NCBI RefSeq assembly: GCF_013315695.1
Contig: NZ_CP054353.1
Origin: Escherichia coli
GTDB lineage: Bacteria; Pseudomonadota; Gammaproteobacteria; Enterobacterales; Enterobacteriaceae
Length of the DNA stretch: 64,000 nt
Direction: 5' to 3' (one strand)
Position 1 is the first letter of the stretch, and every line of letters begins with the position of its first letter. The notes under the pieces are model-generated. The model saw nothing but the letters and a program-made list of their open reading frames with translations. It searched no databases and had not been told where the DNA came from. This document shows positions 735-37,709 of this stretch, one piece after another. The translations under genes were made by a program, and so were the position numbers.

Positions 735-867
735 CGGTGATCTGAACGCGTTGCTGGATGAAACGGAGGCCGCCTGGGCGGTCTGTGCAGACAAAGTGGA
801 CATGATTATTGCGTGTCAGGAGCGAAACAGTGAACAAACCACAATCCCTGCGCCACGCCCTCAATAA
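577..867 (+). CDS. lysC: LysC, Rz1-like outer-membrane lipoprotein spanin overlapping lysB out of frame
   Basis: 96 aa with lipobox LTLSGC; overlaps lysB 3' region in another frame as in Rz/Rz1 pairs. Confidence 0.5.
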   Translation: MRTRIYAAGLILLCLLTLSGCGNVRHSPEVWLTVSGCPRVTPCRLDQATPRTNGDLNALLDETEAAWAVCADKVDMIIACQERNSEQTTIPAPRPQ

Positions 868-1700: not shown

Positions 1701-1704
1701 TCTT

Positions 1705-1722
1705 TGTATCAGCACTGATACA
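1705..1722 (+). promoter_or_regulatory. Ogr-dependent late promoter element TGT-N12-ACA upstream of V
   Basis: tgtatcagcactgataca read directly; matches P2/P4 late-promoter activator site consensus. Confidence 0.45.
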
Positions 1723-1768
1723 AGTTGCAGCACTGCCGCCTTTCTTCCCCTGATGGCAACCTTTCCCT

Positions 1769-2347
1769 ATGAACGCACAATTAACCGAAATCATGCGCCT
1801 TATCACCAACCTAATCCGCACAGGGGTAGTCACCGAAGTGGACAGGGAAAACTGGCTTTGCCGGGTGAAAACGGGCGAGCTTGAAACCAACTGGATCAGC
1901 TGGCTGACGCTGCGTGCCGGGAATGCCCGTACATGGTGGCGACCATCGGAAGGTGAGCAGGTGGTGCTGCTGAGTCTGGGCGGCAATCTGGACACCGCCT
2001 TTGCGCTGCCCGCTGTCTATTCGAATCAGTTCGCACCACCGTCGACGTCGGCGGACGCCTGCGTGACAGAACATCCTGACGGTGGCTGGTTTGAATACGA
2101 ACCCGCCACCGGGCGCTGGTATGTCAGGGGCATCAAATCAATGGTCATTGAGGCTGCTGACAACATCACCATGAAAACCAGTGAGTTTGTACTGGAGGCT
2201 GACCGCACACGCATTAACAGCGAAGTGGTGATCAATGGTGGCGTTACCCAGGGCGGCGGAGCGATGAGTTCTAACGGGATCGTGGTTGATGCGCATCAGC
2301 ATACTGGCGTCCTGAAAGGCGGCGATACAACCGGAGGCCCGGTATGA
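1769..2347 (+). CDS. V: Baseplate assembly/spike protein V
   Basis: 192 aa; size and position match P2 gpV. Confidence 0.75.
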   Translation: MNAQLTEIMRLITNLIRTGVVTEVDRENWLCRVKTGELETNWISWLTLRAGNARTWWRPSEGEQVVLLSLGGNLDTAFALPAVYSNQFAPPSTSADACVTEHPDGGWFEYEPATGRWYVRGIKSMVIEAADNITMKTSEFVLEADRTRINSEVVINGGVTQGGGAMSSNGIVVDAHQHTGVLKGGDTTGGPV

Positions 2348-2703
2348 CGCTTTATAGCGGGATGAACAATACCAGCGGCAAAGTCATTACTGATATTGAT
2401 CATCTGCGCCAGTCGGTGCGGGACATTCTGCTGACACCGCAGGGTAGCCGTATTGCCCGCCGGGAATATGGTTCCCTGCTGTCGGCACTGATAGATCAGC
2501 CACAAAATCCGGCATTACGCCTGCAGGTCATGTCGGCAGTGTATGTGGCGCTGAGTCGCTGGGAGCCACGGTTGACGCTGGATTCCATCACCATCAACAG
2601 CAATTTTGACGGTTCAATGGTGGTGGAGCTGACCGGGCGGCGGAATAACGGTGTGCCTGTGTCCCTTTCCGTATCAACAGGAGCAGAGAATGGCAGTGAT
2701 TGA
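2344..2703 (+). CDS. W: Baseplate protein W (gp25-like)
   Basis: 119 aa; size and position match P2 gpW; start overlaps V stop. Confidence 0.75.
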   Translation: MTLYSGMNNTSGKVITDIDHLRQSVRDILLTPQGSRIARREYGSLLSALIDQPQNPALRLQVMSAVYVALSRWEPRLTLDSITINSNFDGSMVVELTGRRNNGVPVSLSVSTGAENGSD

Positions 2704-3598
2704 CCTTTCGCAGTTGCCTGCACCGCAGATTGTGGATGTGCCGGACTTTGAGACGCTGCTTGCCGAACGCAAGGCAGAATTTGTGGCGCTTCATCCGAAA
2801 GATGAACAGGAAGCAGTGATCCGCACGCTGGAACTGGAATCTGAACCCGCCACTAAATTGTTGCAGGAGAACGCTTACCGTGAGTTGCTTCTGCGCCAGC
2901 GCATTAACGAAGCCGCGCAGGCGGTGATGGTGGCTTACGCGATGGGCGGCGATCTTGACCAGCTCGCTGCCAACTACAACGTGACACGCCTGACGGTGAC
3001 GCCTGCTGATAATGATGCTGTGCCGCCCGTTGCAGCTGTGATGGAAAGCGATGAAGCGTTGCGCCTGCGTGTGCCTGCAGCCTTTGAAGGGCTTTCTGTT
3101 GCGGGGCCAACTGCAGCTTATGAATTTCATGCCCGAAGCGCCGACGGTCGGGTGGCGGATGCCAGTGCAACCAGCACGGCACCTGCAGAGGTGGTGCTGA
3201 CTGTCCTTAGCCGCGAAGGCGATGGAACTGCAGAAAAAGACCTGCTGGACGTGGTGGAAAAAGCTCTGAACAGTGAGAACGTCCGCCCGGTGGCTGACCG
3301 TCTTACGGTTCGCAGCGCAGAAATCATCCCGTATCGCGTGGAAGCCACCATTTTTCTCTATCCGGGACCGGAAGCAGAGCCGGTAATGGCAGCGGCAAAA
3401 GCCAGTCTGCAGAAGTACATTGCCAGCCAGACGCGTCTTGGTCGGGATATTCGCCGTAGCGCCATCTTTGCTGCTCTGCATGTTGAGGGTGTTCAACGTG
3501 TGGAACTGGCTTCTCCGCTGGCGGATGTGGTCCTGAACAAAACACAGGCGGCATCATGTACGCAGTGGAGCGTAACCAACGGAGGAACGGATGAATAG
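2690..3598 (+). CDS. J: Baseplate wedge protein J
   Basis: 302 aa from ATG at 2690 with AGGAG upstream (track ORF starts 2651); P2 gpJ-like. Confidence 0.75.
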   Translation: MAVIDLSQLPAPQIVDVPDFETLLAERKAEFVALHPKDEQEAVIRTLELESEPATKLLQENAYRELLLRQRINEAAQAVMVAYAMGGDLDQLAANYNVTRLTVTPADNDAVPPVAAVMESDEALRLRVPAAFEGLSVAGPTAAYEFHARSADGRVADASATSTAPAEVVLTVLSREGDGTAEKDLLDVVEKALNSENVRPVADRLTVRSAEIIPYRVEATIFLYPGPEAEPVMAAAKASLQKYIASQTRLGRDIRRSAIFAALHVEGVQRVELASPLADVVLNKTQAASCTQWSVTNGGTDE

Positions 3599-4196
3599 TC
3601 TGCTGCCACCGGGTTCAACTTCACTGGAGCGCCGACTGGCGCAAACCTGTAGCGGGATTTCTGATTTGCAGGTGCCGCTGCGTGACTTGTGGAATCCGGC
3701 TACCTGTCCGGTCAGCTTCCTGCCTTATCTCGCCTGGGCGTTCTCTGTGGATCGCTGGGACGAGGGCTGGACAGAAAGCGTCAAACGCCAGGTAGTGAAG
3801 GATGCTTTTTATATTCATCAGCATAAAGGAACCACCAGTGCCGTACGGCGAGTGGTGGAACCGTTCGGATTCCTGATCCGCATTATTGAGTGGTGGCAGA
3901 CCGGAGAAACACCGGGCACGTTTCGCCTGGATATCGGCGTGCAGGACCAGGGCATCACTGAAGATACCTATCTGGAACTTGAGCGACTGATAAGCGATGC
4001 CAAACCATGTAGCCGCCACATGATCGGCATGTCCATCAATCTGCAGACCAGCGGCCCGCATTGGGTGGGAGCCGCCAGCTATCTTGGCGAAGAAATCACG
4101 ATCTATCCGTATATCAACGAAACGATTATTTCCGGTGGCACCGCGCATGAAGGCGGGGCGGTCCATGTTATTGACACAATGAGAGTGAATCCATGA
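3591..4196 (+). CDS. I: Baseplate protein I
   Basis: 201 aa; position between J and H. Confidence 0.7.
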   Translation: MNSLLPPGSTSLERRLAQTCSGISDLQVPLRDLWNPATCPVSFLPYLAWAFSVDRWDEGWTESVKRQVVKDAFYIHQHKGTTSAVRRVVEPFGFLIRIIEWWQTGETPGTFRLDIGVQDQGITEDTYLELERLISDAKPCSRHMIGMSINLQTSGPHWVGAASYLGEEITIYPYINETIISGGTAHEGGAVHVIDTMRVNP

Positions 4197-5314
4197 GCAC
4201 AAAATTTTATACCCTGCTGACGGATATTGGCGCGGCGAAACTTGCCAGCGCCGCCGCGCTCGGTGTGCCGCTAAAAATTACCCATATGGCGGTGGGCGAT
4301 GGCGGTGGAGTATTGCCAACGCCGGACGCAAAGCAGACGGCACTGGTAAATGAGAAACGCCGGGCTGCGCTGAATATGCTTTATATCGACCCGCAGAACA
4401 GCAGCCAGATTATTGCCGAACAGGTGATCCCTGAAAACGAGGGCGGTTGGTGGATACGTGAAGTGGGCTTGTTTGATGAGTCCGGGGCATTGATTGCCGT
4501 GGGCAACTGCCCGGAAAGCTATAAGCCGCAACTGGCTGAAGGTAGCGGGCGCACTCAGACCGTGCGCATGGTGCTGATTACCAGCAGCACGGACAATATC
4601 ACCCTGAAAATCGACCCTGCTGTAGTGCTGGCAACCCGCAAGTATGTGGATGACAAGGCACTGGAGCTGAAGGTGTACGCAGATGATCAGATGGCAAAAC
4701 ATCTTGCCGCACCGGACCCGCATTCACAGTACGCGCCAAAAGCCAGCCCGACATTTACCGGAACCCCCAAAGCGCCAACGCCAGCGGCGGGGAATAATAC
4801 CACGCAGGTTGCGACCACTGCGTTTGTACAGGCGGCACTGACGGCCCTTATTAATGGTGCGCCAGCCACGCTGGACACGCTGAAAGAAATAGCCGCAGCC
4901 ATTAACAATGATCCGAATTTCAGTACCACCATTAACAATGCGCTGGCACTAAAAGCGCCACTGTCGAGTCCGGCACTCACCGGAACGCCAACAGCACCTA
5001 CTGCGGCACAGTCGGTCAACAATACACAGATTGCCACTACAGCTTTTGTGAAATCAGCGATTGCAGCAATGGTGGGTTCTGCACCCGCGGCACTGGATAC
5101 ACTGAACGAACTGGCGGCGGCACTGGGGAATGATCCGAACTTTGCCACGACAATGCTTAATGCGCTGGCAGGTAAACAACCGCTGGACAATACGCTGACT
5201 AATTTGAGTGGAAAGGATGTAGCTGGTCTTCTCGCATACCTTGGTTTGGGAGAAGGCGGCAAAACTGGGTGTGCCTGTTCCAGGGGCCTTCAGATACCGG
5301 ACAACAGGCTTTGA
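4193..5314 (+). CDS. H: Tail fibre protein H, conserved N-terminal/shaft part; ends 19 codons after the inversion crossover site
   Basis: N-terminus MSTKFYTLLTDIGAAKLA...MAVGDGGG and repeats TGTPxAPT / ALDTLNELAAALGNDPNF resemble P2 gpH; 373 aa versus about 669 aa for P2 H. Confidence 0.7.
   Translation: MSTKFYTLLTDIGAAKLASAAALGVPLKITHMAVGDGGGVLPTPDAKQTALVNEKRRAALNMLYIDPQNSSQIIAEQVIPENEGGWWIREVGLFDESGALIAVGNCPESYKPQLAEGSGRTQTVRMVLITSSTDNITLKIDPAVVLATRKYVDDKALELKVYADDQMAKHLAAPDPHSQYAPKASPTFTGTPKAPTPAAGNNTTQVATTAFVQAALTALINGAPATLDTLKEIAAAINNDPNFSTTINNALALKAPLSSPALTGTPTAPTAAQSVNNTQIATTAFVKSAIAAMVGSAPAALDTLNELAAALGNDPNFATTMLNALAGKQPLDNTLTNLSGKDVAGLLAYLGLGEGGKTGCACSRGLQIPDNRL
5229..5254. repeat. 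Left crossover site of invertible segment (hix/gix-like 26 bp)
   Basis: ttctcgcatacc-tt-ggtttgggagaa; half-sites inverted; lies inside H coding frame (LAYLGLGE). Confidence 0.6.
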
Positions 5315-5668
5315 AATGCAAGTGGTGATGGATGGATGAAATTACCCGGAACTGGAAAATCCTGCAAAATGGTCGTGGTGATTTACGCCGAGTTTATCGA
5401 CGCTGGGATGAGAATTACATTGATTAGGCATCGTGTTTTATTGAGTAAGGCCGGACTGCGGAAAAGCACCGTCATCCTGGTGATGGCGGTGCGACTTCAA
5501 AAGCGCTGGGGGAACTGGCGATGATCTTCAGAAGGCCCAACGTTAACAGGGGGCTTTATGCCGCTGCTTACAGAACGTCATCCAACCAGCGACACGGTAT
5601 CGATGAACGACAGTTGGTGGGCTGTTGGCGGGAGTAATTTTATCCAGGGTGATTTATATTGAACGAAT

Positions 5669-5914
5669 ATGTTTATAGCTGCAATGGATAACGCCGTATT
5701 TTCCCGAGGATACCACGATTGCGGGGAATATATAAATCATAGGGATGGGATTGGTGAGACGCGGGAATATATTTCTGCATCAACTCAAAATATTTGCAGT
5801 GGGAGTTTCGGTATTGAACCGCCACAAGGACGCTCCGGTACATCTAAGGCTGGAGATGATTTGCTGTTCTGCGTGGAGAAAATCATGGGAATATGTGTCA
5901 GAAGAACTTATTGA
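5669..5914 (+). pseudogene. Tail fibre assembly (tfa)-like gene fragment, apparently frameshifted
   Basis: Translation MDNAVF...DGIGETREYISAS... shares protein-level similarity with a minus-strand copy near 6480-6680; ORF breaks after 81 aa and continues in another frame. Confidence 0.3.
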
Positions 5915-6436
5915 AATTACTGAATCAGAAAACACCGGAAACCAAGATGCCAACGAAATACAGAACAGGCGACTATCCCGAAAATACAGCCGCTATCGGT
6001 CGCCATGAACGATAAATGAACTGGCGCAATATAATTGACAGATACTGGATTATCTGGACGGTGGAACTGGTTGATTCCTCCAGCACAGCGCCAGTCATTG
6101 ATTGATGGCAATGGCCTCCGGCAGTCTGGCCAGATGAAACATCCGGCGCGGGACTGTAAACTGTTGCCGTCACCGAAACAATGTAATCCAGCGCAGCGTT
6201 AAGTTGGTTGACGCTGGTGACGGCAACAGATACCGTCCGGCCGGATGTCATCAGTTGAACTGCCTGAGGCGCAGGCCATTTGCATCAATCTGGTGACTGG
6301 GAGGAATCAACCAGTTCAGTGCGTCCAGATAATCCAGCCACAAATTACCCATTTTCGCCAGTTCCCATTTATCAGACGACGTTAGCGGCTTTACCGGGTG
6401 GTTGTATTTTCATGATATTCGCCTGGCTTGATTTAA

Positions 6437-6625
6437 TTAGTAGCTCTGTCTTTCTGATTCAGTTATAGACGATTTCACTTCGATGGTGGGTGGATGATTT
6501 TTAAATCCACAGAACGGCAAATTCATAACCAGCCTTACGGATTTTGAGCGTTGTGGCAGGTTCTGGAATAAACTCACTGCAAGATATTTTTGATGCAGAA
6601 ATATATTCCCGCGTCTCACCATCAT
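6437..6625 (-). pseudogene. Second tfa-like copy in opposite orientation, frameshifted
   Basis: 30-bp perfect inverted repeat with 5753-5782; conserved peptide ...YDGETREYISAS... lies in a different frame from the track ORF here. Confidence 0.3.
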
Positions 6626-6676
6626 AGTTATAGACGGTCAATATATCCACGCCTTCGTGGTAATGCCTTGCGCTAT

Positions 6677-7129
6677 TTAAACACGGCGTCGTTCATTAAT
6701 GCAGCCCTGACGATAAGTTAAACCAACAGCCCACGGGTTGTAATTCGCCGATACCGATGTCGCTGGTGAATGACGTTCGGTGATGGGATCAGAATTAAAG
6801 CCGGTTAACCCCCTGGGCCTTCGTGCAGTCATCACGAATTGTCGCCCAGCGCCCATTCCTCTTTGAGCCATCACCCAGAATGAGTACAGGATGACGGTGC
6901 TTTTCCAGCATTTTGGGGAAAGGGATGCTAAAAACACGTCCTCATTGTTACCGCGATAATGTCGGCGTAACCGCGAATAACGACCGCATAAATCAGGTAA
7001 TTTATTTGTTGGATAATTGCCAGTTCCATCCATCAAAATGCCGCACCGTTGCAAAAGCCAGCCTGTCCGGTATCTGAAGGCCATGGAACAGTCACACCAT
7101 CCCGTTTTGCAGAGCTTCTCCCAAACCAA
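6677..7129 (-). other. 150-codon open frame reading inward from right crossover site; status uncertain
   Basis: Long stop-free frame, +1 relative to the H continuation frame; W/R/C-rich translation. Confidence 0.2.
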
Positions 7130-7141
7130 CGTTTATGAAAA
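7116..7141. repeat. Right crossover site of invertible segment
   Basis: ttctcccaaacc-aa-cgtttatgaaaa; inverted relative to left site (core TT versus AA). Confidence 0.6.
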
Positions 7142-7196
7142 TGCAGAGATAATGGCTAACTGGCATCATCCCCGGTTTTTATTCAGGGGGATGATC

Positions 7197-7763
7197 ATGC
7201 TTATTGGCTATGTACGCGTGTCAACAAATGACCAGAACACCGATTTGCAACGTAATGCACTGAACTGCGCGGGATGTGAGCGGATTTTTGAGGATAAAAT
7301 CAGTGGCACTAAGTCCGACAGACCAGGGTTGAAAAAACTGCTCAGGACACTATCGGCAGGAGACACGCTGGTTGTCTGGAAGCTGGACAGGTTGGGGCGC
7401 AGTATGCGGCATCTTGTTACGCTGATAGAAGAGTTGCGTCAGCGAGGCGTGAATTTCCGAAGCCTGACTGACAGTATTGATACCAGCACCCCAATGGGCC
7501 GTTTCTTTTTTCATGTCATGGGTGCCCTGGCTGAAATGGAACGCGAACTGATAGTTGAACGTACCAGGGCAGGGCTGGCTGCAGCTCGTGCCAAAGGCAG
7601 AGTAGGTGGACGCCGTCCTAAGTTGACCACCGAACAGTGGGCACAGATTGGGCGTTTACTCGAGGCCGGAGAATCAAGACAGCGTATTGCACTGATTTTT
7701 GATGTAGGCGTTTCTACCATTTATAGAAAATTTCCGGCAAATAAGAGCAATGAATCTCCCTGA
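7197..7763 (+). CDS. pin: Serine DNA invertase, Pin/Gin/Cin/Hin family
   Basis: MLIGYVRVSTNDQNTDLQRNAL... with catalytic Ser in VRVST and C-terminal HTH; track ORF 7017-7763 over-extends upstream. Confidence 0.9.
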   Translation: MLIGYVRVSTNDQNTDLQRNALNCAGCERIFEDKISGTKSDRPGLKKLLRTLSAGDTLVVWKLDRLGRSMRHLVTLIEELRQRGVNFRSLTDSIDTSTPMGRFFFHVMGALAEMERELIVERTRAGLAAARAKGRVGGRRPKLTTEQWAQIGRLLEAGESRQRIALIFDVGVSTIYRKFPANKSNESP

Positions 7764-7810
7764 ATCAGCATTATTTTGATTATCCCTGCAGCAGACAAAT
7801 ACCGTCATTT

Positions 7811-7828
7811 TGTGTGAATAACGGTACA
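7811..7828 (+). promoter_or_regulatory. Ogr-dependent late promoter element TGT-N12-ACA upstream of FI
   Basis: tgtgtgaataacggtaca about 75 bp upstream of FI start. Confidence 0.45.
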
Positions 7829-7904
7829 ACTGCGCTTAGCTGTTTGTCAGGCACAATCACTTCAACATAGGGCGAAGCCTAATCCAATCAGGAGGTTCGC
7901 CACT

Positions 7905-9077
7905 ATGGCTCAGGATTACCACCATGGGGTGCGCGTTGTTGAAGTCAACGAAGGCACCCGATCCATTACCACGGTGAGCACCGCCATCGTGGGTATGGTC
8001 TGCACGGGCGACGATGCCGATGCAAAAATGTTTCCTCTTAATAAACCCGTGCTGATCACTGATGTGCTGACTGCCAGCGGTAAAGCGGGTGAGTCCGGCA
8101 CGCTGGCCCGTTCGCTGGACGCCATCGCTGACCAGGCAAAACCCGTGACCGTTGTTGTGCGTGTGCCGCAGGGTGAAACGGAAGAAGAAACCACAACCAA
8201 TATCATCGGCGCAGTGACCGCCGAGGGTAAAAAAACAGGCATGAAAGCCCTGCTATCTGCCCAGTCACAGCTCGGCGTTAAACCGCGCATTCTCGGCGTG
8301 CCAGGTCACGATAACAAAGCCGTTGCTACTGAGTTGCTGAGTGTGGCGCAAAGCCTGCGTGGGTTTGCCTACCTGTCAGCATATGGCTGCAAGACGGTAC
8401 AGGAGGCGATCACTTACCGTGAAAACTTCAGCCAGCGCGAAGGGATGCTGATCTGGCCTGACTTTACTGGCTGGGACACGGTGCTGAACGCCGAAGCAAT
8501 GGCATATGCCACCGCCCGTGCGCTTGGTCTGCGTGCCAAAATTGATGAGCAGACCGGGTGGCACAAAAGCCTGTCCAACGTGGGCGTGAACGGTGTCACC
8601 GGAATTTCTGCAGATGTGTTCTGGGATCTGCAGGACCCGGCAACCGATGCAGGTCTGCTGAACCAGAACGACGTCACCACGCTTGTGCGTAAAGACGGTT
8701 TCCGCTTCTGGGGTTCCCGCTGCCTGAGTGATAACCCGCTCTTTGCCTTCGAAAACTACACCCGCACGGCGCAGGTGCTGATGGACACGATGGCAGAAGC
8801 ACACATGTGGGCGGTGGATAAACCGCTTAACCCGTCGCTGGCCCGCGACATTATCGAAGGTATCCGCGCCAAAATGCGCAACCTGGTCAGTCAGGGCTAT
8901 CTCATTGGTGGTGATTGCTGGCTGGACGAGTCGGTGAACGACAAAGACACGCTTAAAGCCGGAAAACTCACCATCGACTACGACTACACGCCAGTGCCGC
9001 CACTTGAAAATCTGATGCTGCGCCAGCGCATCACCGATCAGTACCTGGTGAATTTCGCCAGCCAGGTCAGCGCGTAA
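7905..9077 (+). CDS. FI: Contractile tail sheath protein FI
   Basis: 390 aa; AGGAGG RBS; size and position match P2 FI. Confidence 0.85.
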
Positions 9078-9086
9078 GGGGACAAC

Positions 9087-9602
9087 ATGGCTTTACCACG
9101 TAAATTAAAACATCTGAACTTGTTTAACGACGGGAACAACTGGCAGGGGATCGTTGAGTCGCTGACGCTGCCGAAATTCACCCGCAAATATGAGAAGTAT
9201 CGCGGCGGCGGTATGCCGGGGGCGGTGGATGTGGATCTGGGACTGGATGACAGTGCACTGGATACAGAATTTTCCATTGGTGGTACTGAACTGCTGCTGT
9301 TTAAGCAGATGGGCAAATCCACGGTGGATGGCATCCAGCTGCGCTTTACCGGCTCTATCCAGCGTGACGATACCGGGGAAGTGCAGGCCGTGGAGCTTGT
9401 CGTGCGTGGACGTCACAAAGAAGTGGATTCCGGCGAGTGGAAGACGGGCGAAAGCAACACCACCAAAGTGACCAGTACCAACAGCTACGCGAAGCTGACC
9501 ATCAATGGTGAGGTGCTCTATGAAGTGGACCTTATCAACATGGTGGAAATTGTGGACGGTGTGGACCTGATGGAAGCGCACCGCAACGCCCTCGGCCTCT
9601 GA
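9087..9602 (+). CDS. FII: Tail tube protein FII
   Basis: 171 aa immediately after sheath gene. Confidence 0.85.
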   Translation: MALPRKLKHLNLFNDGNNWQGIVESLTLPKFTRKYEKYRGGGMPGAVDVDLGLDDSALDTEFSIGGTELLLFKQMGKSTVDGIQLRFTGSIQRDDTGEVQAVELVVRGRHKEVDSGEWKTGESNTTKVTSTNSYAKLTINGEVLYEVDLINMVEIVDGVDLMEAHRNALGL

Positions 9603-9656
9603 TGTATCTGAACGGCGCGGAATGCCGCGCCAGAACCTAATTTACAGGACAACAAA

Positions 9657-9959
9657 ATGAGCGATAAACAGACTGAAAAGACCATTCAACTGGATACCCC
9701 CATCATGCGCGGTAAAACAGAAATTACCGAAATTGTGTTGCGTAAACCGCAGTCTGGTGCGCTGCGCGGCACACGCCTGCAGGCCATTATGGATATGGAT
9801 GTGAACGCGATGATGACCGTGATCCCCCGCATCTCCAGTCCGGCACTGACTGCACAGGAAATCGCAGAGATGGACCCGGCAGATCTCACAGCCATGTCGG
9901 TTGAGGTTGTCACTTTTTTGTTGAAGAAGTCGGTGCTTGCCGGTTTACCGACAGCCTGA
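9657..9959 (+). CDS. E: Tail assembly chaperone E
   Basis: 100 aa upstream of tape measure; contains slippery TTTTTTG at 9914-9920. Confidence 0.7.
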   Translation: MSDKQTEKTIQLDTPIMRGKTEITEIVLRKPQSGALRGTRLQAIMDMDVNAMMTVIPRISSPALTAQEIAEMDPADLTAMSVEVVTFLLKKSVLAGLPTA

Positions 9960-10093
9960 CGGTTGACGATCTGGTGGCAGATATCGCCACCATTTTTCAC
10001 TGGCCGCCATCCGTTACTGACGTTATGCCGCTGACCGAAGTGCTGGAATGGCGGTATAAAGCGATTCAGAGAAGCAGGGCCAACGATGAGTGA
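9657..10093 (+). CDS. E+E' fusion chaperone made by programmed -1 frameshift
   Basis: -1 frame after TTTTTTG stays open to TGA at 10091-10093, overlapping T start; conserved feature of tail chaperone genes. Confidence 0.5.
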
Positions 10094-13000
10094 TAACAAC
10101 CTGCGCCTGCAGGTCATTCTTAATGCGGTTGACAAACTCACCCGCCCATTCCGTGCTGCACAGGCCAGTTCGAAAGAGCTGGCTGGCGCAATCAGAAACT
10201 CCCGTGACGCATTAAAGCAACTCAATCAGGCGGGTAACAGCCTGGAAAAATTTCGCAAGCTGCAGGCTGATAACAAGAAGTTAGGTGACAGGCTGAACTA
10301 TGCCAGACAGAAGGCTAATTTGCTTAGCTCTGAGCTGGAGGCGATGGAACAACCATCACAACGGCACCTTGTGGCTTTAGGTCGGCAAACGCTGGCAGTC
10401 CAACGCCTGGAAGAACAACAAAAATATTTGCAGAAGCAAACGGCGCTTGTGCGTGCAGAACTGTACCGGGCGGGAATTTCTGCGAAAGATGATGCGGGAG
10501 CAACTGCCCGTTTAGCCCGTGAAACATCACGTTATAACCAGGAATTGTCGAAACAGGAGGCGCGGCTGAAGCGACTGGGTGAAGCTCAGCGCAGGATGAA
10601 TGCGGCGCGTGCCAGTTATGCCCGTTCGCTGGAGGTGCGTGATCGTATTGCAGGAGCCGGAGCCACCACCACGGCTGCAGGGCTGGCAATGGGAACACCA
10701 GTGATGGCGGCAGTAAAAAGCTATACCAGCATGGAAGATGCCATGAAAGGTGTGGCAAAGCAGGTCAATGGTCTGCGTGACGATAATGGCAACCGCACTG
10801 CACGTTTTTATGAAATGCAGGATGCCATCAAGGCTGCCAGCGAACAGTTGCCGATGGAAAACGGTGCGGTGGACTTCGCTGCACTGGTTGAAGGTGGTGC
10901 GCGCATGAACGTCGCAAACCCTGACGACAGCTGGGAAGACCAGAAACGTGACCTGCTGGCCTTCGCCAGTACGGCAGCAAAGGCGGCAACAGCCTTTGAG
11001 CTGCCAGCGGATGAACTGTCAGAAAGTCTGGGGAAAATCGCCCAGCTCTACAAAATACCTACCCGCAATATTGAACAGCTCGGCGATGCGCTGAACTATC
11101 TGGATGATAACGCCATGTCGAAAGGGGCGGACATCATTGATGTCATGCAACGTCTGGGCGGTGTGGCTGATCGTCTGGATTATCGTAAAGCGGCGGCGCT
11201 GGGTTCCACCTTTCTGACACTGGGCGCTGCGCCAGAGGTTGCAGCCAGTGCAGCAAACGCGATGGTGCGTGAATTGTCCATTGCCACCATGCAAAGCAAG
11301 AGTTTCTTTGAAGGGATGAATCTGCTGAAACTCAATCCTGAAGTGATTGAAAAGCAGATGACGAAGGATGCGATGGGAACTATCCAGCGTGTGCTGGAGA
11401 AGGTGAACGCACTGCCGCAGGACAAGCGTCTGTCTGCCATGACCATGTTGTTTGGTAAAGAGTTTGGTGATGACGCGGCGAAACTGGCAAACAACCTTCC
11501 GGAACTGCAGCGCCAGCTAAAACTGACTGCGGGCAATGATGCGCTCGGTTCCATGCAGAAAGAATCCGACATCAACAAAGACTCACTTTCTGCGCAGTGG
11601 TTGCTGGTCAAAACCGGAGCGCAGAACACCTTCAGCAGCCTGGGCGAAACGCTGCGCCAGCCGCTGATGGATATTCTGTACACGGTAAAAAGCATCACGG
11701 GGGCGTTGCGCCGCTGGGTGGAAGCTAACCCGGAACTGACAGGCACACTGATGAAAGTAGCGGCTGTTGTGGCTGCGGTTACCGTAGGCCTCGGCACCTT
11801 AGCGGTGGCGCTGGCTGCAGTGCTGGGGCCGCTGGCAGTCATCCGTTTGGGATTCTCTGTGCTGGGTATCAAAACGTTACCTTCCGTTACGGCAGCAGTA
11901 ACACGAACCAGCAGCGCGTTGTCCTGGCTGGCTGGCGCTCCACTGGCACTGCTGCGACGCGGGCTTGCTTCATCGGGCAACGCAGCGGGTTTACTTACTG
12001 CGCCGTTGTCGTCTTTGCGCCGCATGGCATCACTGACGGGGAATGTCCTGAAAACTGTAGCAGGTGTGCCGGTTGCACTGTTGCGGTCTGGATTATCCGG
12101 TTTACGTGCTGTTGCTGTGATGTTTATGAATCCACTGGCAGCACTACGCGGTGGACTGGCTGCCGCAGGCGCGGTGCTGCGAGTACTGGCATCCGGTCCG
12201 CTGGCGATGCTGCGCGTTGCCCTGTATGCCGTATCTGGTCTGTTAGGTGCTCTGCTCAGTCCGATAGGTCTTGTGGTTACTGCACTGGCGGGCGTGGCGC
12301 TGGTTGTCTGGAAATACTGGCAACCCATCACCGCATTTCTCGCTGGTGTGGTGGAAGGATTCAACGCGGCGGCAGGTCCCATCAGTGCAGCATTCGAACC
12401 GCTTAAGCCTGTGTTTCAGTGGATTGGCGATAAAGTGCAGGCGTTGTGGGGCTGGTTTACTGATCTGCTGACGCCCGTTAAGTCGACCTCTGCCGAACTG
12501 CAGAGTGCAGCGGCAATGGGGCGGCGATTCGGAGAGGCACTGGCGGAAGGGCTGAATATGGTCATGCATCCGCTGGACTCCCTGAAATCCGGCGTTTCCT
12601 GGTTGCTGGAGAAACTTGGCATTGTCAGTAAAGAGGCCGCAAAGGCAAAACTGCCGGAAAGCATGACGCGTCAGCAACCTGCGACGGTGAATGCAGACGG
12701 TAAAGTGATGATGCCATCGGGTGGTTTTCCGTCATGGGGATATGGCTTTGCGGGGATGTATGACAGCGGCGGGTATATCCCGCGCGGGCAGTTTGGCATC
12801 GTCGGTGAAAACGGGCCGGAAATTGTTAACGGCCCGGCAAATGTGACCAGCCGGAGAAATACAGCTGCACTGGCTGCCGTTGTTGCCGGAATGATGGGCG
12901 TTGCTGCCGCGCCAGCAGAGCTTCCACCGTTGCACCCTTTGGCACTTCCCGCGAAAGGTGGAGAAGCAATTGTGAGTCGCGCAGCCACTGTGCCGCTCGT

Positions 13001-13163
13001 TCAACGGATTGAGGCACCGACGCAGATCATCATTCAGACGCAGCCAGGACAAAGTGCGCAGGATATTGCGCGGGAGGTGGCACGCCAGCTTGATGAACGT
13101 GAACGCAGGCTGAAGGCAAAAGCCAGGAGTAACTACAGCGATCAGGGGGGATACGACGCATGA
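10086..13163 (+). CDS. T: Tail tape measure protein T
   Basis: 1025 aa; coiled-coil N-terminus, repeated hydrophobic PLAxLRxGL motifs; position after E/E'. Confidence 0.85.
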   Translation: MSDNNLRLQVILNAVDKLTRPFRAAQASSKELAGAIRNSRDALKQLNQAGNSLEKFRKLQADNKKLGDRLNYARQKANLLSSELEAMEQPSQRHLVALGRQTLAVQRLEEQQKYLQKQTALVRAELYRAGISAKDDAGATARLARETSRYNQELSKQEARLKRLGEAQRRMNAARASYARSLEVRDRIAGAGATTTAAGLAMGTPVMAAVKSYTSMEDAMKGVAKQVNGLRDDNGNRTARFYEMQDAIKAASEQLPMENGAVDFAALVEGGARMNVANPDDSWEDQKRDLLAFASTAAKAATAFELPADELSESLGKIAQLYKIPTRNIEQLGDALNYLDDNAMSKGADIIDVMQRLGGVADRLDYRKAAALGSTFLTLGAAPEVAASAANAMVRELSIATMQSKSFFEGMNLLKLNPEVIEKQMTKDAMGTIQRVLEKVNALPQDKRLSAMTMLFGKEFGDDAAKLANNLPELQRQLKLTAGNDALGSMQKESDINKDSLSAQWLLVKTGAQNTFSSLGETLRQPLMDILYTVKSITGALRRWVEANPELTGTLMKVAAVVAAVTVGLGTLAVALAAVLGPLAVIRLGFSVLGIKTLPSVTAAVTRTSSALSWLAGAPLALLRRGLASSGNAAGLLTAPLSSLRRMASLTGNVLKTVAGVPVALLRSGLSGLRAVAVMFMNPLAALRGGLAAAGAVLRVLASGPLAMLRVALYAVSGLLGALLSPIGLVVTALAGVALVVWKYWQPITAFLAGVVEGFNAAAGPISAAFEPLKPVFQWIGDKVQALWGWFTDLLTPVKSTSAELQSAAAMGRRFGEALAEGLNMVMHPLDSLKSGVSWLLEKLGIVSKEAAKAKLPESMTRQQPATVNADGKVMMPSGGFPSWGYGFAGMYDSGGYIPRGQFGIVGENGPEIVNGPANVTSRRNTAALAAVVAGMMGVAAAPAELPPLHPLALPAKGGEAIVSRAATVPLVQRIEAPTQIIIQTQPGQSAQDIAREVARQLDERERRLKAKARSNYSDQGGYDA

Positions 13164-13645
13164 TGATGGTGCTGGGATTGTACGTGTTTATGCTGCGCAC
13201 CGTTCCGTATCAGGAACTGCAGTATCAACGCAGCTGGCGACATGCGGCAAACAGTCGGGTAAACCGACGTCCGTCCACGCAGTTTCTGGGACCGGAAAAC
13301 GACATGCTGACGCTTTCCGGTGTTCTTATGCCGGAGATAACAGGCGGCAGGCTGTCGTTGCTGGCACTGGAGCAGATGGCAGAACAGGGGAAAGCATGGC
13401 CCCTGATTGAAGGCAGCGGCACGATTTACGGCATGTATGTGATTGAGGGACTGAATCAGACTAAAACGGAGTTTTTCCGCGACGGTATGCCGCGCCGGAT
13501 TGAGTTCACCCTGTCGCTCAAACGAGTGGATGAATCCCTGTCCGATATGTTCGGTGATCTCAGTGCGCAACTGAATAATCTGCAGGACACGGCAACGTCT
13601 GCCTTAAGCGATATCAGTAAAACGGTGGGAGGGCTGCTGTCGTGA
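13160..13645 (+). CDS. U: Tail protein U
   Basis: 161 aa; position and size match P2 gpU. Confidence 0.75.
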   Translation: MMMVLGLYVFMLRTVPYQELQYQRSWRHAANSRVNRRPSTQFLGPENDMLTLSGVLMPEITGGRLSLLALEQMAEQGKAWPLIEGSGTIYGMYVIEGLNQTKTEFFRDGMPRRIEFTLSLKRVDESLSDMFGDLSAQLNNLQDTATSALSDISKTVGGLLS

Positions 13646-14742
13646 ATTTCAGCGCTGAACTGCTTAACACAGGCAACAAAACTCCCGCATTCAGCATCAG
13701 TATTGAGGGCAGGGATATCACCACTGTGCTGGATAACCGCCTGATGAGTTTGACGCTGACGGATAACCGGGGCTTTGAAGCGGACCAGCTTGATCTGGAG
13801 CTGGATGACGCTGACGGAAAAATCGTGCTGCCGCGCCGTGGTGCGGTCATTACGCTGGCGCTGGGCTGGAAGGGGCAGCCGCTTTTCCCTAAAGGGGCAT
13901 TCACAGTGGACGAGATTGAACACACTGGCGCACCGGACCGCCTGACTATCCGGGCGCGAAGTGCTGATTTTCGGGAAACGCTGAATACCCGCCGTGAAAA
14001 ATCGTGGCATAAGACCACCGTCGGGGAAGTGGTGAAGGAAATAGCCGCGCGGCACAAGCTGAAGATGGCACTGGGTAAAGACCTGTCGGATAAGCCCGTG
14101 GAGCATATAGACCAGACTAATGAGAGTGACGGCAGTTTTCTGATGCGGCTGGCGCGACAGTACGGTGCCATCGCGTCGGTGAAAAATGGCAATCTGTTAT
14201 TCATCCGGCAGGGGCAGTGCAAAAGCGCCACTGGTAAACCTCTGCCAGTGATCACTATCACACGCAAGGACGGTGACAGTCACCGATTTATCCTGGCAGA
14301 TCGCGGAGCCTACACGGGCGTAATTGCCAGCTGGTTGCATACCCGCGAACCTGCGAAGAAAGAAAGCACCACGGTGAAGCGTAAGCGCAGAACTAAGAAG
14401 CAGAAGAAAGAGCCAGAAGCGAAGCAGGGCGATTACCTGGTGGGTACGGATGAAAACGTGCTGGTACTTAATCGCACTTATGCCAACCGGAGCAACGCCG
14501 AACGAGCGGCGAAAATGCAGTGGGAACGCCTGCAACGCGGCGTTGCGTCATTTTCTCTACAACTGGCAGAAGGGCGGGCAGATCTCTACACGGAAATGCC
14601 TGTGAAGGTCAGTGGTTTTAAACAGCCGATAGATGATGCGGAATGGACCATTACGACTCTGACACATACCGTCAGCCCGGATAACGGTTTTACAACCAGT
14701 ATTGAACTTGAAGTGAAAATTAATGATCTTGAAATGGAATAA
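13642..14742 (+). CDS. D: Tail/baseplate hub protein D
   Basis: 366 aa; GTG start overlapping U stop; position matches P2 gpD. Confidence 0.75.
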   Translation: MNFSAELLNTGNKTPAFSISIEGRDITTVLDNRLMSLTLTDNRGFEADQLDLELDDADGKIVLPRRGAVITLALGWKGQPLFPKGAFTVDEIEHTGAPDRLTIRARSADFRETLNTRREKSWHKTTVGEVVKEIAARHKLKMALGKDLSDKPVEHIDQTNESDGSFLMRLARQYGAIASVKNGNLLFIRQGQCKSATGKPLPVITITRKDGDSHRFILADRGAYTGVIASWLHTREPAKKESTTVKRKRRTKKQKKEPEAKQGDYLVGTDENVLVLNRTYANRSNAERAAKMQWERLQRGVASFSLQLAEGRADLYTEMPVKVSGFKQPIDDAEWTITTLTHTVSPDNGFTTSIELEVKINDLEME

Positions 14743-14810
14743 ATGGTTCTCAATATTGATATTTTGTGTATCATTGCATTGATTATGATAGCAAAGGTAG
14801 GGATCTGGAT

Positions 14811-15029
14811 ATGATGAATTGTCCAAAGTGTGGTCATGCGGCGCACACAAGGAGCAGTTTTCAAGTAACGGAAAGCACCAAAGAACGTTACTGCCAGTGC
14901 CAAAATATTAACTGCGGGAGCACTTTTGTTACCCATGAAACAGTGGTCCGGTTTATTGTGACACCTGCAGTGATTGCCACAGCCCCTCCACATCCATTGC
15001 CAGATGGTCAGGGCCATATGAATTTTTAA
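14811..15029 (+). CDS. ogr: Ogr zinc-finger late-gene transcriptional activator
   Basis: MMNCPKCGHAAH...CQCQNINCGSTF with four-Cys zinc finger; about 72 aa from ATG at 14811. Confidence 0.85.
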   Translation: MMNCPKCGHAAHTRSSFQVTESTKERYCQCQNINCGSTFVTHETVVRFIVTPAVIATAPPHPLPDGQGHMNF

Positions 15030-15036
15030 GAAAGAG

Positions 15037-15064
15037 AACCTGCTACGGCAGGTTTTATTTTTCT
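15037..15064 (+). terminator. Rho-independent terminator after ogr
   Basis: aacctgctacggcaggtt hairpin followed by T-rich run. Confidence 0.6.
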
Positions 15065-15269
15065 GTAAGCCTATCCATTTAAAGTATAAATGAATATTTA
15101 CATTGATGATTATCATTAGAGTTGCGTTAAAGACTACACCTGCCATTTGTACAATGTTTTAAAGTAATGGCTGCAATTAAATGCAGCCATTATTTATAAT
15201 GATTAATATATATAAAATATCAGACACTGAATAATAACGTACTTTATGTTCAAGGGTCGATATAATCAC

Positions 15270-16346
15270 TTAATAGAATGTTTCTACTAAAGCGTTTACA
15301 TGTTCTCTAGCCTCGCGATAACGCTCTCTTACAACGTTGATAATTTCACCGTTTGGCATTTCATAATGAGTTTGAGCAGGAAGTTTGAAAAGAGGAATTC
15401 CCAAACTTGCAGAAACTTTCCCTGAAGTATGAAAATCTTTAACTTCAGAAAGATAGGCCGCCTCCCATTCATTTAAGTTATTGATTTCACGATATCGCTC
15501 CGTGAATAGTTCTGGGAAGTTCTGATATTGTGTAAAAGCAAAAGCACAAAGGGATTCTTTGATTGAATCATAAGCTCTGGCAACACCAAGATTAGACGTA
15601 AAGTTATTGAAAACAAAGCGATCTAACTTAGGTAATGTAAGATTATTATTCACAACTTGGCTATGAAAAGTGACAAACTTTTCTGCATAGGTTTGTGCAG
15701 CAGAAGAGGGATAATGGCCATAAAGAAGCATCATTATTCCTTTCATCCCTTCTAATGAACTGTAATCAGCCATCATAGGGACGACCAGTCTATCTGAAGA
15801 TAGTAGAGCCATTTGGGTGTAGATAGAAAAACTTGGATTACAGTCAATAAAGACAACCATATCATCGTAATCATCAATATCATGTTCTAGAGTACATAGT
15901 CGACGAAATGCTGTCATATACTCTTTCCATGCGAACCTGTTAGCTGGACTGATAACTGCATAGTTCAGTGCAAGAGTAAGGGACTCGAGGAATGAATCAC
16001 CGGCGATGAGAAACAAATTATCGCTGATTTCATCATTATATTGGTTTACTGCTACTTTGAAAGAACGTCGAATACTGGTGAAATTTGAATGGCCATCTAA
16101 AAGCCAGTCCAGAAACCCTACGACATTTTTGCGTGTTCGTGAAGATTGTAGCTCTTGATTAGTATTGTACCCACGATCACCTCCTCCAAGCAGGTATTGA
16201 GAAATGTTTGCTTGCGGACACAAATCTATTACTAGTACCTGTGTGCTGGGATTTTCTTCTGCATACTGTGCAGCAATGTTGAAACCAAGTGTTGTTTTTC
16301 CAACACCGCCTTTGTTGTTATACATTGCATAAATCTTAACTGCCAT
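15270..16346 (-). CDS. Orphan ParA/MinD-like P-loop ATPase with uncharacterised C-terminal extension; prophage cargo gene of unknown function
   Basis: 358 aa; deviant Walker A KGGVGKTT at residues 12-19, A' motif VLVIDLCPQAN, Walker B-like MVVFIDCNPS; AT-rich; opposite strand to phage late genes; no ParB-like neighbour. Confidence 0.75.
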   Translation of the reverse strand: MAVKIYAMYNNKGGVGKTTLGFNIAAQYAEENPSTQVLVIDLCPQANISQYLLGGGDRGYNTNQELQSSRTRKNVVGFLDWLLDGHSNFTSIRRSFKVAVNQYNDEISDNLFLIAGDSFLESLTLALNYAVISPANRFAWKEYMTAFRRLCTLEHDIDDYDDMVVFIDCNPSFSIYTQMALLSSDRLVVPMMADYSSLEGMKGIMMLLYGHYPSSAAQTYAEKFVTFHSQVVNNNLTLPKLDRFVFNNFTSNLGVARAYDSIKESLCAFAFTQYQNFPELFTERYREINNLNEWEAAYLSEVKDFHTSGKVSASLGIPLFKLPAQTHYEMPNGEIINVVRERYREAREHVNALVETFY

Positions 16347-16641
16347 GTGTATTTCACCCGAGGTTGAATAAAAGCCTACTACATCGCTATTTTACCATTC
16401 AATTTTATCATTAGCAGATTCCAATGAAGAAGATACTTCTGGTTTATCTAATGAAAATTGTGAAGTAAAAGTAGGATACTTCATTCTTCTGCAGTGAGGG
16501 GGGCGTGGATAACATTATAATTTCTTGTTGTATAGCCTTTTCGGGAAAGAGCAGACAAGATTTACATAAAACTCTGTCGCCATTTTGCCGCCACTTCCAA
16601 AGAAAAAGGGGCTACGCTTTCACGTAACCCCTTGATTTATT

Positions 16642-17004
16642 TGGTGGAGCTGGCGGGAGTTGAACCCGCGTCCGAAATTCCTACATCCTCGGTACTACAT
16701 GCTTAGTCAGTCTTTACATTCGCTTGCCAGCTGCGGACGGACACGCCACTAACAAACTAGCCTGATTAAGTTTTAACGCTTCAACCCCAGGCAGGGCTTC
16801 CACGCGATCTCTTTTGGGTTTGACCTCTCTTGATCCCCGTCCTAAGAGCGGAGGCTAGGGAGAGAGGGCTCTAAGCAGGTTATTAAGCTGCTAAAGCGTA
16901 GTTTTCGTCGTTTGCGACTATTTTTTGCGGCTTTTTACGAGGCCAACCGCCCCTCGGCATGCACCTTGGGTTTCGCAAATCCCGTCGAATCCAGAATCAG
17001 CCCC
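16642..17004 (-). ncRNA. ssrA: tmRNA (SsrA)
   Basis: Reverse complement reads GGGGCTGATTCTGGATTCGACGGG...GGACGCGGGTTCAACTCCCGCCAGCTCCACCA; tag-coding region present. Confidence 0.95.
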
Positions 17005-20887: not shown

Positions 20888-22480
<1,593 letters not shown>

Positions 22481-22488
22481 ATATCTGA

Positions 22489-22516
22489 TGGCCGACGCGA
22501 AGTCGGCCATTTTTTT
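22489..22516 (+). terminator. Rho-independent terminator after grpE
   Basis: tggccgacgcgaagtcggcca hairpin plus TTTTTTT; the T run overlaps the stop codon of the convergent acidic ORF. Confidence 0.7.
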
Positions 22517-23156
22517 AGCTTAAAAAATCCTGTACTTCCAGCCACGGCGTGTTGAAATCATCTATTTTTTTATATTCGTTCATTGGCAGAACGGCCACGT
22601 TATAACTATCTGTTCCTTCATTCAGATTGAAAATTTGGTAGCCCCGTTCATTAAGCTGGTCCTGAATGCGTCCAAAGATCTCGTCAAGGTAACGATCACC
22701 ATCTTCGCAGGCATCTGCAATTTCATCTTCCTGAGTTATGTCGATAAGCAGACTTCGTAGTGTCTCTGAGGCTGTCAGGTCTTTACACAGATCGTAGAAG
22801 CGGTCAGCAGCAAAATTTGCCAGCTCACCATCTTCTTCTTCGCCTTTCCAGTCAACAATATGGATTAATCCTTCGTTGCGTAGGATTTGTAAAAATGCCT
22901 GCCCCAATGCGTCATTTCCTAAATCGCCACCGCTGCAATTGAGAACGTCTTGCAATCCATATTCGTCTTCATCTTCGTCTTCAAAGATTTCAGGAGTGGT
23001 GGCAAGTTGAGAGACGATACCAGACCATAGCGTTGGCTCGTGGGGGAAAAACACGCTGGCGACAACGTTGAGATCGTCTTCAAAATCCTTATCCCACTCA
23101 ATTACATAATCTTCTGACATAACATCGATATCCTTTCCGAATAATTGAAATGTCAT
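22515..23156 (-). CDS. Hypothetical highly acidic protein (about 201-213 aa), function unknown
   Basis: Uninterrupted ORF, D/E-rich including EDEDEDEY; likely start at internal Met with AAGGA RBS (about 23120); region GC visibly below flanking core genes. Confidence 0.55.
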
Positions 23157-23240
23157 TATTGCATTGTGAAGTAAAAGGAAGGAATTGATGGAATCCTAAA
23201 AGGCGGCGATAAGAAAGGCGAACCGGAGCTCGCCACTGTA

Positions 23241-36283: not shown

Positions 36284-37709
36284 TAATGCCAGTCAGTTAA
36301 GCAACTGACTGGCTCTTTTTCGGGGCTGTGGGGTATTTCCAGGGCCTCTCCTTTACCACTCTCGGGAAGGCCCTTTCCCTTCTTGTCGGTAATTTCACAA
36401 GTTGTCCCATACTTGCAAGATCGCGCATCAGCTCCGGTATACGTCCCGGTGAAGCGCCCTGCAATGTCATCAGCATTCTCATCACCATTCCGCATGATTC
36501 TGAGAAACTCAGTTGATTCGGCCAGTAACCTTTCAGATGTTCCGCCATTTTAATCATCTGATATCTCACCAGATTATAAGCCAGTAAGACACCCCACAGC
36601 TCTTGCTCCACAAGCTCCGGTTTTTTACTTCTCAGCGTCAGCCTGCTCAGTTGCATCGTCTGTTTTATCTCCCTGTATCCCAGTTCGATTTCCCAGCGAT
36701 GACTGTACAGATCCGCCATTTCTCCTCCGGGGAAGCGCATGGCGTCCGTCATCGACGTCAGCAGATGGCAGACTTTTCCTTTGCGCGTCACGGTCAGCAG
36801 GCGGGCTGTCACTTCATTTCCCAGTCCCGGCCACTTTTTTCGTGCCTGCGGGCTGGTTTTCAGCTTCACCAGATGATCGCCTTTACCCAGTTTTCTGATC
36901 TCTTCATATTGCGCTCCCTTTCTGAGAGGTATCATCCAGTGGCGGTGTTCTCCCGCCAGGCTCCAGGCATTTAACAGTCCCAGTGAGTAATAACCTTTAT
37001 CCATTAACGTCAGAGTGTTATCGCCGGTTTGTTCTATAAGTTGCTCAGCAAGCTCATTTTCGCTGTTCTTCATCGTGCCGAAGGCTGCAGCCGTCAGCAG
37101 ATGGCTGGTCAGTTCCATCTGGCAGACCATTTTGACCTGCGGGTAGAGCGCCGGGTTCCCGGCATGTGTCTGGCGGGGGAAGGCTGCATCGTTCTCTGGT
37201 GTATCCGGTGTGCGCCAGAACACACCATCGATGGCCAGCAGGGTCAGGCCGCACCAGTGCGGATGCGGCGTGGCGTTATGCCAGAGCTGCGCTGTTTTCG
37301 TGAACACGCGGCGGACAGCCTCACTTCCCAGGCGCTGGCGGGCCTGAATAACGGCACTGGGGGCAACGAAGGGGCGATTGCCCGGCAGCATGATGTCCAG
37401 GCGATTCACAATCTGGTGAAGAGGTTCTTTACGCTCAAGCGCCATGCCAACAATACACCAGACCATCATTTCGAGGGGAAGACGGCGCTTGCGTAGCGTT
37501 ACAGTACCTGATTCGGCAAGGCAACGAGAGATGAGTTCGGGGTCGAGGTAATCCCCCAGAGAAGTCAGTGGGTTACGCAGAGAATCGTAACGGGATACCA
37601 GATCAAGAGCCTGTCCAATGTGCATAAAAAAATCCGGAAACAAGTGAGCGTTTCCGGATTCTTACACAGCCACTGGATCGGTCAACTGATCCTTAACTGA
37701 TCGGCATTA
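36284..37709 (-). mobile_element. IS4 insertion sequence, 1426 bp, complete
   Basis: Terminal inverted repeats taatgccagtcagttaag / taatgccgatcagttaag at both ends; encodes IS4 transposase; no flanking direct repeat. Confidence 0.9.
36297..37625 (-). CDS. insG: IS4 transposase
   Basis: About 442 aa from [19 protein letters not shown] (track ORF 448 aa). Confidence 0.9.

Follow-up and report, generated by a model that had tools for sequence, protein, structure and literature searches.

A gene for a hyper-acidic DUF6630 protein in a variably occupied slot between yfjD and grpE of Escherichia coli and other Enterobacteriaceae

Orphan immunity proteins of T6SS, CDI and polymorphic toxin systems, including the SUKH/SMI1-KNR4 and colicin Im types, are small, cytoplasmic and acidic, are encoded by AT-rich, strain-variable, stand-alone genes, and often show diversifying selection at their interfaces. 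A strongly negative charge also characterises Ocr and ArdA, and anti-restriction genes of this kind normally reside on phages and plasmids. Intergenic slots of variable content, kept by recombination between homologous flanks, are a general feature of the accessory genome in E. coli. The gene described here lies between yfjD and grpE in a stretch of 64,000 nucleotides of E. coli DNA (assembly GCF_013315695.1, contig NZ_CP054353.1), which in its whole length we call the window, and it has something in common with each of these systems. Like orphan immunity genes it is AT-rich, strain-variable and stand-alone and encodes a small, cytoplasmic, acidic protein, and one of its relatives sits in a VgrG/DUF4123 cluster behind a tandem array, but it has no sequence or fold relation to immunity proteins, no toxin neighbour and no diversifying selection, and its place is a fixed one between core genes, not in a toxin locus or mobile island. 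The negative charge density of its product is comparable to that of Ocr and ArdA, yet there is no Pfam or fold match to them and the gene is chromosomal rather than borne on phages or plasmids. Like other variable intergenic slots it displays a clean two-state polymorphism, deep alleles, exchange across species and no mobility genes, while its cargo is, unlike theirs, a single gene, and the slot is shared by at least three named genera (Escherichia, Salmonella and Superficieibacter).

We hold it to be close to certain that this is an intact, selectively maintained, single-copy accessory gene of the chromosome, which encodes a cytoplasmic hyper-acidic DUF6630 protein of 201 aa from its own ribosome-binding site and shares a terminator with grpE; that the yfjD-grpE slot is old and variable, several genera of Enterobacteriaceae having it occupied in a minority of their strains; that the alleles spread by vertical inheritance and by homologous recombination via the flanks, with no mobile element; and that the window carries the rarer of two deep allele classes. 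Both the protein and its family are already catalogued, in RefSeq and Pfam respectively, and no paper mentioning DUF6630, PF20335 or the WP accessions was found in the literature library searched. What is new here is the two-state population structure, the depth of the alleles, the sharing of the slot across genera and the lack of a solved fold relative.

The gene order in this region of the window is recN(-), nadK(-), grpE(+), the gene in question (-), yfjD(-), ypjD(-) and ffh(+), with the gene convergent to grpE, and within the stretch compared the sequence differs by one base from the chromosome of E. coli MS 21-1. RefSeq labels the product "DUF6630 family protein" (WP_001287920.1) and places the CDS at 22515..23120. 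A preliminary description, made from the sequence alone, had reported a minus-strand reading frame at 22515-23156. This frame of 213 codons is indeed open, but its start is not the likelier one: the ATG at 23156 was rejected as initiator, since homologues down to 58% identity, as well as the RefSeq annotation, begin at the ATG at 23120. The upstream ATG is missing in Salmonella, in Superficieibacter and in a related Enterobacteriaceae metagenome-assembled genome (MAG), full-length homologues have ~201 aa, and the alignment runs from the Met at 23120. The true start is probably this ATG, giving a product of 201 aa, not 213. The core of the ribosome-binding site, AAAGGA, is invariant across all seven lineages aligned, and the full GGAAAGGA is found in five of the seven. 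Further upstream, a scan for consensus sigma-70 promoters returned only an unconserved TTCACA-18-AATTAT (23170-23141), with counts not above those in shuffled sequences, and no sigma-32-type promoter was seen by eye 5' of the gene; the extended -10 element given in Table 1 is a candidate.

Table 1. Features of the yfjD-grpE intergenic segment, in window coordinates.
Feature	Position	Strand	Evidence
Whole variable intergenic segment, 760 bp, in place of the 54-bp K-12-type yfjD-grpE spacer	22481..23240	.	Genome comparison
Bidirectional terminator hairpin common to the convergent grpE and DUF6630 genes	22487..22511	+	Terminator scan: 10 pairs, 6 of them G-C
DUF6630-family CDS (201 aa and stop)	22515..23120	-	ORF, RefSeq WP_001287920.1, Pfam, homologues, dN/dS, AlphaFold2
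In-frame upstream extension (12 codons), most likely 5' untranslated leader	23121..23156	-	Unconserved ATG, homologues
Ribosome-binding site GGAAAGGA, 10 nt 5' of the ATG at 23120	23131..23138	-	Sequence, alignment
Candidate extended -10 promoter element TGCAATAAT (inferred)	23155..23163	-	By eye; the ATG at 23156 lies inside
Terminator-like hairpin GGCGAGCTCCGGTTCGCC followed by TTTCTT, directly 3' of the yfjD stop	23217..23234	-	Terminator scan

Two properties of the gene that had been pointed out from the sequence hold up well. It is AT-richer than its surroundings, with a GC content of 43.9% against 50.9% for the window and a GC3 of 42% against 52-60% for grpE and yfjD, and its stop codon does fall inside the T tract of the grpE terminator: the T-run extends over 22510-22516, and the stop, read on the plus strand as TTA (22515-22517), consists of the last two T of this run and the next A. 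The hairpin on the grpE side is kept among Escherichia alleles, while Salmonella and K-12 each have another hairpin instead. The hairpin on the yfjD side, terminator-like but modest, is kept in all occupied loci from Escherichia to Salmonella and separates yfjD from the DUF6630 gene. The sole Rfam result, for the isrD sRNA at 22482-22514, is sub-threshold (23.4 bits against a gathering cut-off of 37, E 0.049) and probably reflects a mere hairpin likeness of the grpE terminator.

The distribution of the segment among 5426 complete E. coli genomes falls into two states. In 303 of them (~6%), including pathogenic O103:H2 and ETEC-labelled strains, the slot is occupied, always on the chromosome and in single copy, and 5122 have the K-12-type empty junction with its 54-bp spacer, so that the two classes sum to 5425 and 94% of E. 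coli are without the gene. The locus is thus strain-variable, as had been suspected, and K-12 does lack the gene: it has only the short spacer, with a different hairpin, between yfjD and grpE. This also disposes of the possibility, raised at the same time, of a conserved core gene that K-12 shares with most E. coli. The K-12 spacer was searched for remains of the gene and nothing better than in shuffled sequence was found, so the junction does not tell deletion from insertion. Between the two states the whole intergenic region is replaced, including the last grpE codons, and the borders of the 760-bp segment have no inverted repeats and only trivial direct repeats. Since there is neither a remnant in K-12 nor a terminal repeat, the states represent alternative versions of the intergenic region and not an insertion with clean junctions. 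No paralogue of the gene is present within the window.

The end of grpE deserves a separate description. In all occupied loci with a grpE 3' end that was read, which span Escherichia to Salmonella, GrpE ends in KAK and has 196 aa; that of K-12 ends in KAKA and has 197 aa (window 22466-22480 against 5116-5133 of the K-12 locus L004), and the last codons differ also at synonymous sites between the occupied and the empty state. The length of GrpE and these synonymous differences track the state of the slot, which places a recombination boundary inside the 3' end of grpE. The divergent relative at locus L012 adjoins a grpE of the KAKA type. In Salmonella (L005 5606-5810) and a related MAG (L007 5606-5810) the DUF6630 gene is followed by a spacer of ~200 bp before grpE. 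This spacer holds a REP-like palindrome, GCCGGGTGGCGGCTTCGCCTTACCCGGCCTAC, which the Escherichia version lacks.

The gene occupies the same position, in the same orientation, in several lineages of Enterobacteriaceae. Protein identity to the window is ~82% in a divergent Escherichia labelled E. coli (SCPM-O-B-8794), 82% in E. whittamii, 80% in a contig labelled E. fergusonii with E. coli-like flanks, 66% in Superficieibacter electus, 60% in a further metagenomic lineage (P0018) and 58% both in Salmonella enterica isolates and in an Enterobacteriaceae MAG. Even a homologue with 33% identity (P0038) faces a grpE in convergent orientation, on a contig that ends before the other flank; the GrpE encoded there shares 94% identity with the E. 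coli protein. A contig scan with one genome per species returned four loci and was negative for the S. enterica representative, a weak negative in view of the narrow search patterns; in Salmonella, too, the gene seems to be accessory. The slot is an old presence/absence polymorphism spread by flank homology, not a recent insertion.

The preliminary description had instead likened the locus to a small cassette inserted right at the grpE terminator. A GC content below that of the flanks and the absence of the gene from K-12 and 94% of E. coli would suit a recent insertion of a mobile cassette in this strain, but it is highly improbable in view of the occupation of the slot in several genera, the replacement of the whole spacer and the grpE 3' end with no clean insertion, the old synonymous divergence between alleles (see below) and the lack of repeats, integrase or IS at the borders. 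No recombinase, integrase or IS adjoins the gene, and no copies were found on phages or viral contigs. There are no genuine plasmid copies either, as the two matches in 'plasmids' are chromosomal core segments of Salmonella records. In Salmonella Senftenberg NCTC10384 the 728-kb 'Plasmid 2' (NZ_LN868944.1 18446-27048) carries ffh-ypjD-yfjD-DUF6630-grpE-nadK-recN with an Escherichia-like allele, that is, chromosomal core sequence filed as a plasmid, and this replicon may be mislabelled or a contaminant. An Escherichia-like fragment of the gene with 77% identity on a 413-bp contig of Streptomyces cahuitamycinicus (NZ_POUC01000996.1, ~1x coverage) is almost certainly contamination.

Two deep allele classes exist in E. 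coli. The window-type allele is found in 10 genomes (five identical, five at 96-99%) and the O103:H2-type allele in 293, of which 197 have at least 99% identity to the O103 allele. The dS between the two classes is 0.73, as opposed to 0.05-0.17 for ffh, ypjD, yfjD, grpE, nadK and recN of the same two genomes. The window allele is about equidistant (dS 0.77-0.85) from every other Escherichia allele, which implies that its source lineage is unsampled. The DUF6630 genes of Salmonella and the MAG are 93% identical, with flanks at 82-87%, and the O103 and SCPM alleles are 96% identical, with flanks at 91-95%; in both cases the genes are closer than their flanks, pointing to exchange between lineages into the same slot. 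The GC content of orthologues remains at 42-46% in all hosts, whatever the GC3 of the flanks (up to 72%).

Pairwise dN/dS is 0.07-0.2 for all pairs of the DUF6630 gene and 0.00-0.09 for the neighbouring genes, so the gene is under purifying selection, though the constraint on it is weaker than on the genes beside it. Diversifying selection was not detected, as pN does not exceed pS in any 30-codon window. The dN/dS values, together with the length kept at 201 aa and a confident structure model, establish that the reading frame is a genuine gene rather than one open by chance. The same observations make it barely credible that we are looking at a functionless remnant drifting towards loss, as could be thought from the loss of the gene from most strains and from one frameshifted copy (among three carrier loci whose annotation was opened): the length is preserved across 58% identity, the predicted fold is confident, and among the matches listed from the 303 carriers every one covers the full 606 bases.

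As had been noticed at the outset, the protein is exceptionally rich in Asp and Glu and contains the run EDEDEDEY. Its 201 residues include 27 Asp and 23 Glu (25%) against 11 Lys and Arg, resulting in a net charge of about -39 and a pI of 4.05, and the sequence contains neither a signal peptide nor a membrane segment. The initial impression that it has no recognisable motif was mistaken, since residues 49-199 match Pfam DUF6630 (PF20335) with 50.8 bits against a gathering cut-off of 27 (E = 3.1e-13), over profile positions 20-145 of 158. The relatives all match DUF6630 as well, with modest scores of 30-56 bits, and therefore form a peripheral branch of the family, which differs from the rest in an extra N-terminal helical region (~50-80 aa) and in its extreme acidity. 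As far as sequence searches reach, the branch is very small. Among 1.84 billion representatives, a scan with the single sequence detected no more than 29 at E <= 1e-3, profile searches added little, and a scan of metagenomes with DNA patterns returned 93 loci with ~20 true relatives, including one new lineage.

In a 19-sequence alignment reaching down to 22% identity, Pro43, Asp90, Glu94, Leu156 and Asp171 are invariant, and Gly98, Phe103, Arg107 and Phe149 nearly so. The core motif shared with distant members is D-W-[KR]-G-E followed by a G-x-D hairpin; its Trp91 is invariant in an alignment of six distant members but not in the 19-sequence one, where some Salmonella-type rows have Tyr. Acidity is a family property: a net charge of -14 to -40 was counted in 19 of 20 members, with identities down to 22%, the exception being P0057 (net -3, pI 5.58). 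In the confident AlphaFold2 model (pLDDT 91.4, pTM 0.88) the N-terminal part is helical, and the four strands of the C-terminal part (86-90, 161-167, 172-179 and 195-198) pack with helices. The model has no fold relatives in PDB or BFVD, and sequence searches of the PDB, run with two profiles and with one distant member, produced chance matches only. NCBIfam and PHROGs scans gave no match, PADLOC-DB defence models included no family at E <= 1 for this protein and three relatives, and Pfam hmmscan at E <= 1 returned only DUF6630 and a chance UPF0180, with no Imm*, SUKH/SMI1_KNR4, colicin immunity, ArdA or Ocr-type family.

What could such a protein do? Immunity proteins and DNA mimics, which the preliminary description had brought up as acidic proteins of this kind, are hypotheses only. 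A net charge of -39 over 201 aa, with acidic runs and with acidity conserved in the family, invites the idea of a nucleic-acid mimic, whose negative surface would imitate DNA or RNA and sequester a restriction enzyme, a nucleoid protein or a nuclease of a phage or toxin. We consider this role quite unlikely, because the Pfam search just described contained no ArdA or Ocr-type match, the model has no fold match to solved DNA mimics or viral protein models, and the gene is absent from phages, viral contigs and genuine plasmids.

The genomic contexts of the relatives offer another approach. Across seven independent DUF6630 contexts there is no conserved neighbour gene. Beside the yfjD-X-grpE arrangement of Enterobacteriaceae (X being the DUF6630 gene), Budvicia-type genomes have recR-X-htpG, one homologue (L010) lies between an opp-like ABC operon and DUF924/moeA, and another (L019) is near thiamine genes. 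A likeness to SUKH proteins, seen by eye in the two small ORFs that follow the L010 homologue, was dropped, as Pfam gave it no support at E <= 10. A relative with 35% identity (P0035, locus L011) is located at the end of a cluster that encodes a VgrG tip and a DUF4123 adaptor; it comes directly after two tandem copies of a two-gene module and adjoins an IS3. The module (L011 3265-5191), downstream of the VgrG and DUF4123 genes, encodes proteins of ~207 and 86 aa with no Pfam match, and its copies are 83% identical (3265-4215 and 4234-5191); this has the look of a type VI array of immunity type, as yet uncharacterised. Finally, in nine near-identical gut-metagenome contigs (the L098 group; L098 6531-8222) the gene is 46 bp downstream of an ADP-ribosylglycohydrolase gene, an enzyme class which includes an immunity protein, in the T6SS Tre1/Tri1 system. 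The protein of this group comprises only the C-terminal DUF6630 core and a Cys4, zinc-ribbon-like tail, an arrangement not seen in the enterobacterial members. Two themes weakly recur among the contexts: chaperone genes, in two slots, and loci of interbacterial conflict, in two single lineages.

From the first theme a role as an accessory factor of proteostasis could be imagined, in which the acidic protein would assist or modulate the Hsp70/Hsp90 network, for example as a holdase-like or co-chaperone-binding factor. Two unrelated slots adjoin chaperone genes, grpE in one and htpG in the other, and even the allele with 33% identity adjoins a grpE. Nevertheless we regard such a role as unlikely. 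In the window the gene and grpE run towards each other and are thus not co-transcribed, no sigma-32-like promoter was seen by eye, 94% of E. coli manage without the gene, other relatives are in unrelated contexts, and the fold has no similarity to known co-chaperones.

The neighbour on the other side suggests a cation-related partner of the CorB-type (CNNM/CBS) transporter YfjD, a carboxylate-rich protein that would either take up divalent cations such as Mg2+ as ligands or have a regulatory effect on YfjD. In all Enterobacteriaceae the gene is directly downstream of ypjD-yfjD on the same strand with only the modest hairpin in between, and 50 carboxylates with invariant Asp and Glu would be suited to cations. 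However, relatives outside Enterobacteriaceae are not near yfjD, and yfjD is universal in E. coli but the DUF6630 gene rare, so that we think this very unlikely.

Our preferred, though tentative, reading, to which we would give well below even chances, is that the protein is a stand-alone stoichiometric binder that neutralises a basic protein surface, most likely as an orphan immunity-type protein against an interbacterial toxin acting in the cytoplasm. The protein would act alone, with no partner encoded beside its gene, and the toxin would be one delivered by competitors. We favour a binder because the protein is cytoplasmic and hyper-acidic and has no enzymatic signature, and because the gene has no partner gene, is patchy and AT-rich, and has relatives in two conflict-type contexts. 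Enzymatic, DNA-mimic or chaperone-factor roles are less likely in our opinion. The conservation of acidity across the family and the lack of a signal peptide or membrane segment are consistent with a cytoplasmic immunity-like binder, as is the occurrence of the gene as a strain-variable, AT-rich singleton with no conserved neighbour across the seven contexts. P0035 is placed as genes are in type VI effector/immunity arrays, with VgrG/DUF4123 and a tandem module, and the position of a distant relative directly downstream of the ADP-ribosylglycohydrolase gene points the same way.

Several observations weigh against an immunity-like binder. No toxin gene adjoins in the window or in most relatives, with only L011 in a VgrG/DUF4123 cluster, and the type VI and ADP-ribosylglycohydrolase contexts are each represented by a single lineage. 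There is no match to Pfam immunity or SUKH families, PADLOC or PHROGs, and no solved or viral fold relative. Diversifying selection, frequent at immunity interfaces, was not detected here, and with two domains in 201 aa the protein is larger than many immunity proteins. The chaperone genes next to two of the slots (grpE and htpG) point elsewhere, and the invariant Asp90, Glu94 and Asp171 could equally mark a metal or active site. The remaining probability belongs to a function not yet conceived.

A more far-reaching version of this proposal is that DUF6630 represents a hitherto unseen fold and that its members make up a new family of protective proteins that act alone, as orphan immunity proteins or decoys against an interbacterial toxin acting in the cytoplasm. 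Their genes would sit next to chaperone genes in fixed slots and would persist in Enterobacteriaceae as a presence/absence polymorphism that crosses species and has deep allele classes. In this full form it is doubtful. If an immunity or decoy role were true, it would add a new family to the biology of interbacterial conflict and would mean that such genes can persist in core-genome slots without their toxins; if the protein were instead linked to chaperones, it would be a strain-specific modifier of proteostasis. In either case it is a well-defined target, hyper-acidic and under purifying selection, with a confident fold and no solved structural relative, and natural carrier and non-carrier strains, which are not isogenic, exist for testing.

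Elsewhere in the window, positions 1-17004 are taken up by an island integrated at ssrA (tmRNA 16642-17004) with an integrase at 15246-16475. It encodes a DUF3644 protein, a DNA methyltransferase (12587-13552), a MobQ relaxase (8532-10034), an HTH and reverse-transcriptase pair (7081-8455), a TIR-domain protein (5382-6266) and an H-NS-family gene (788-1195), and looks like a mobilisable defence island. An IS4-family transposase gene (36297-37643) is situated between raiA and bamD.
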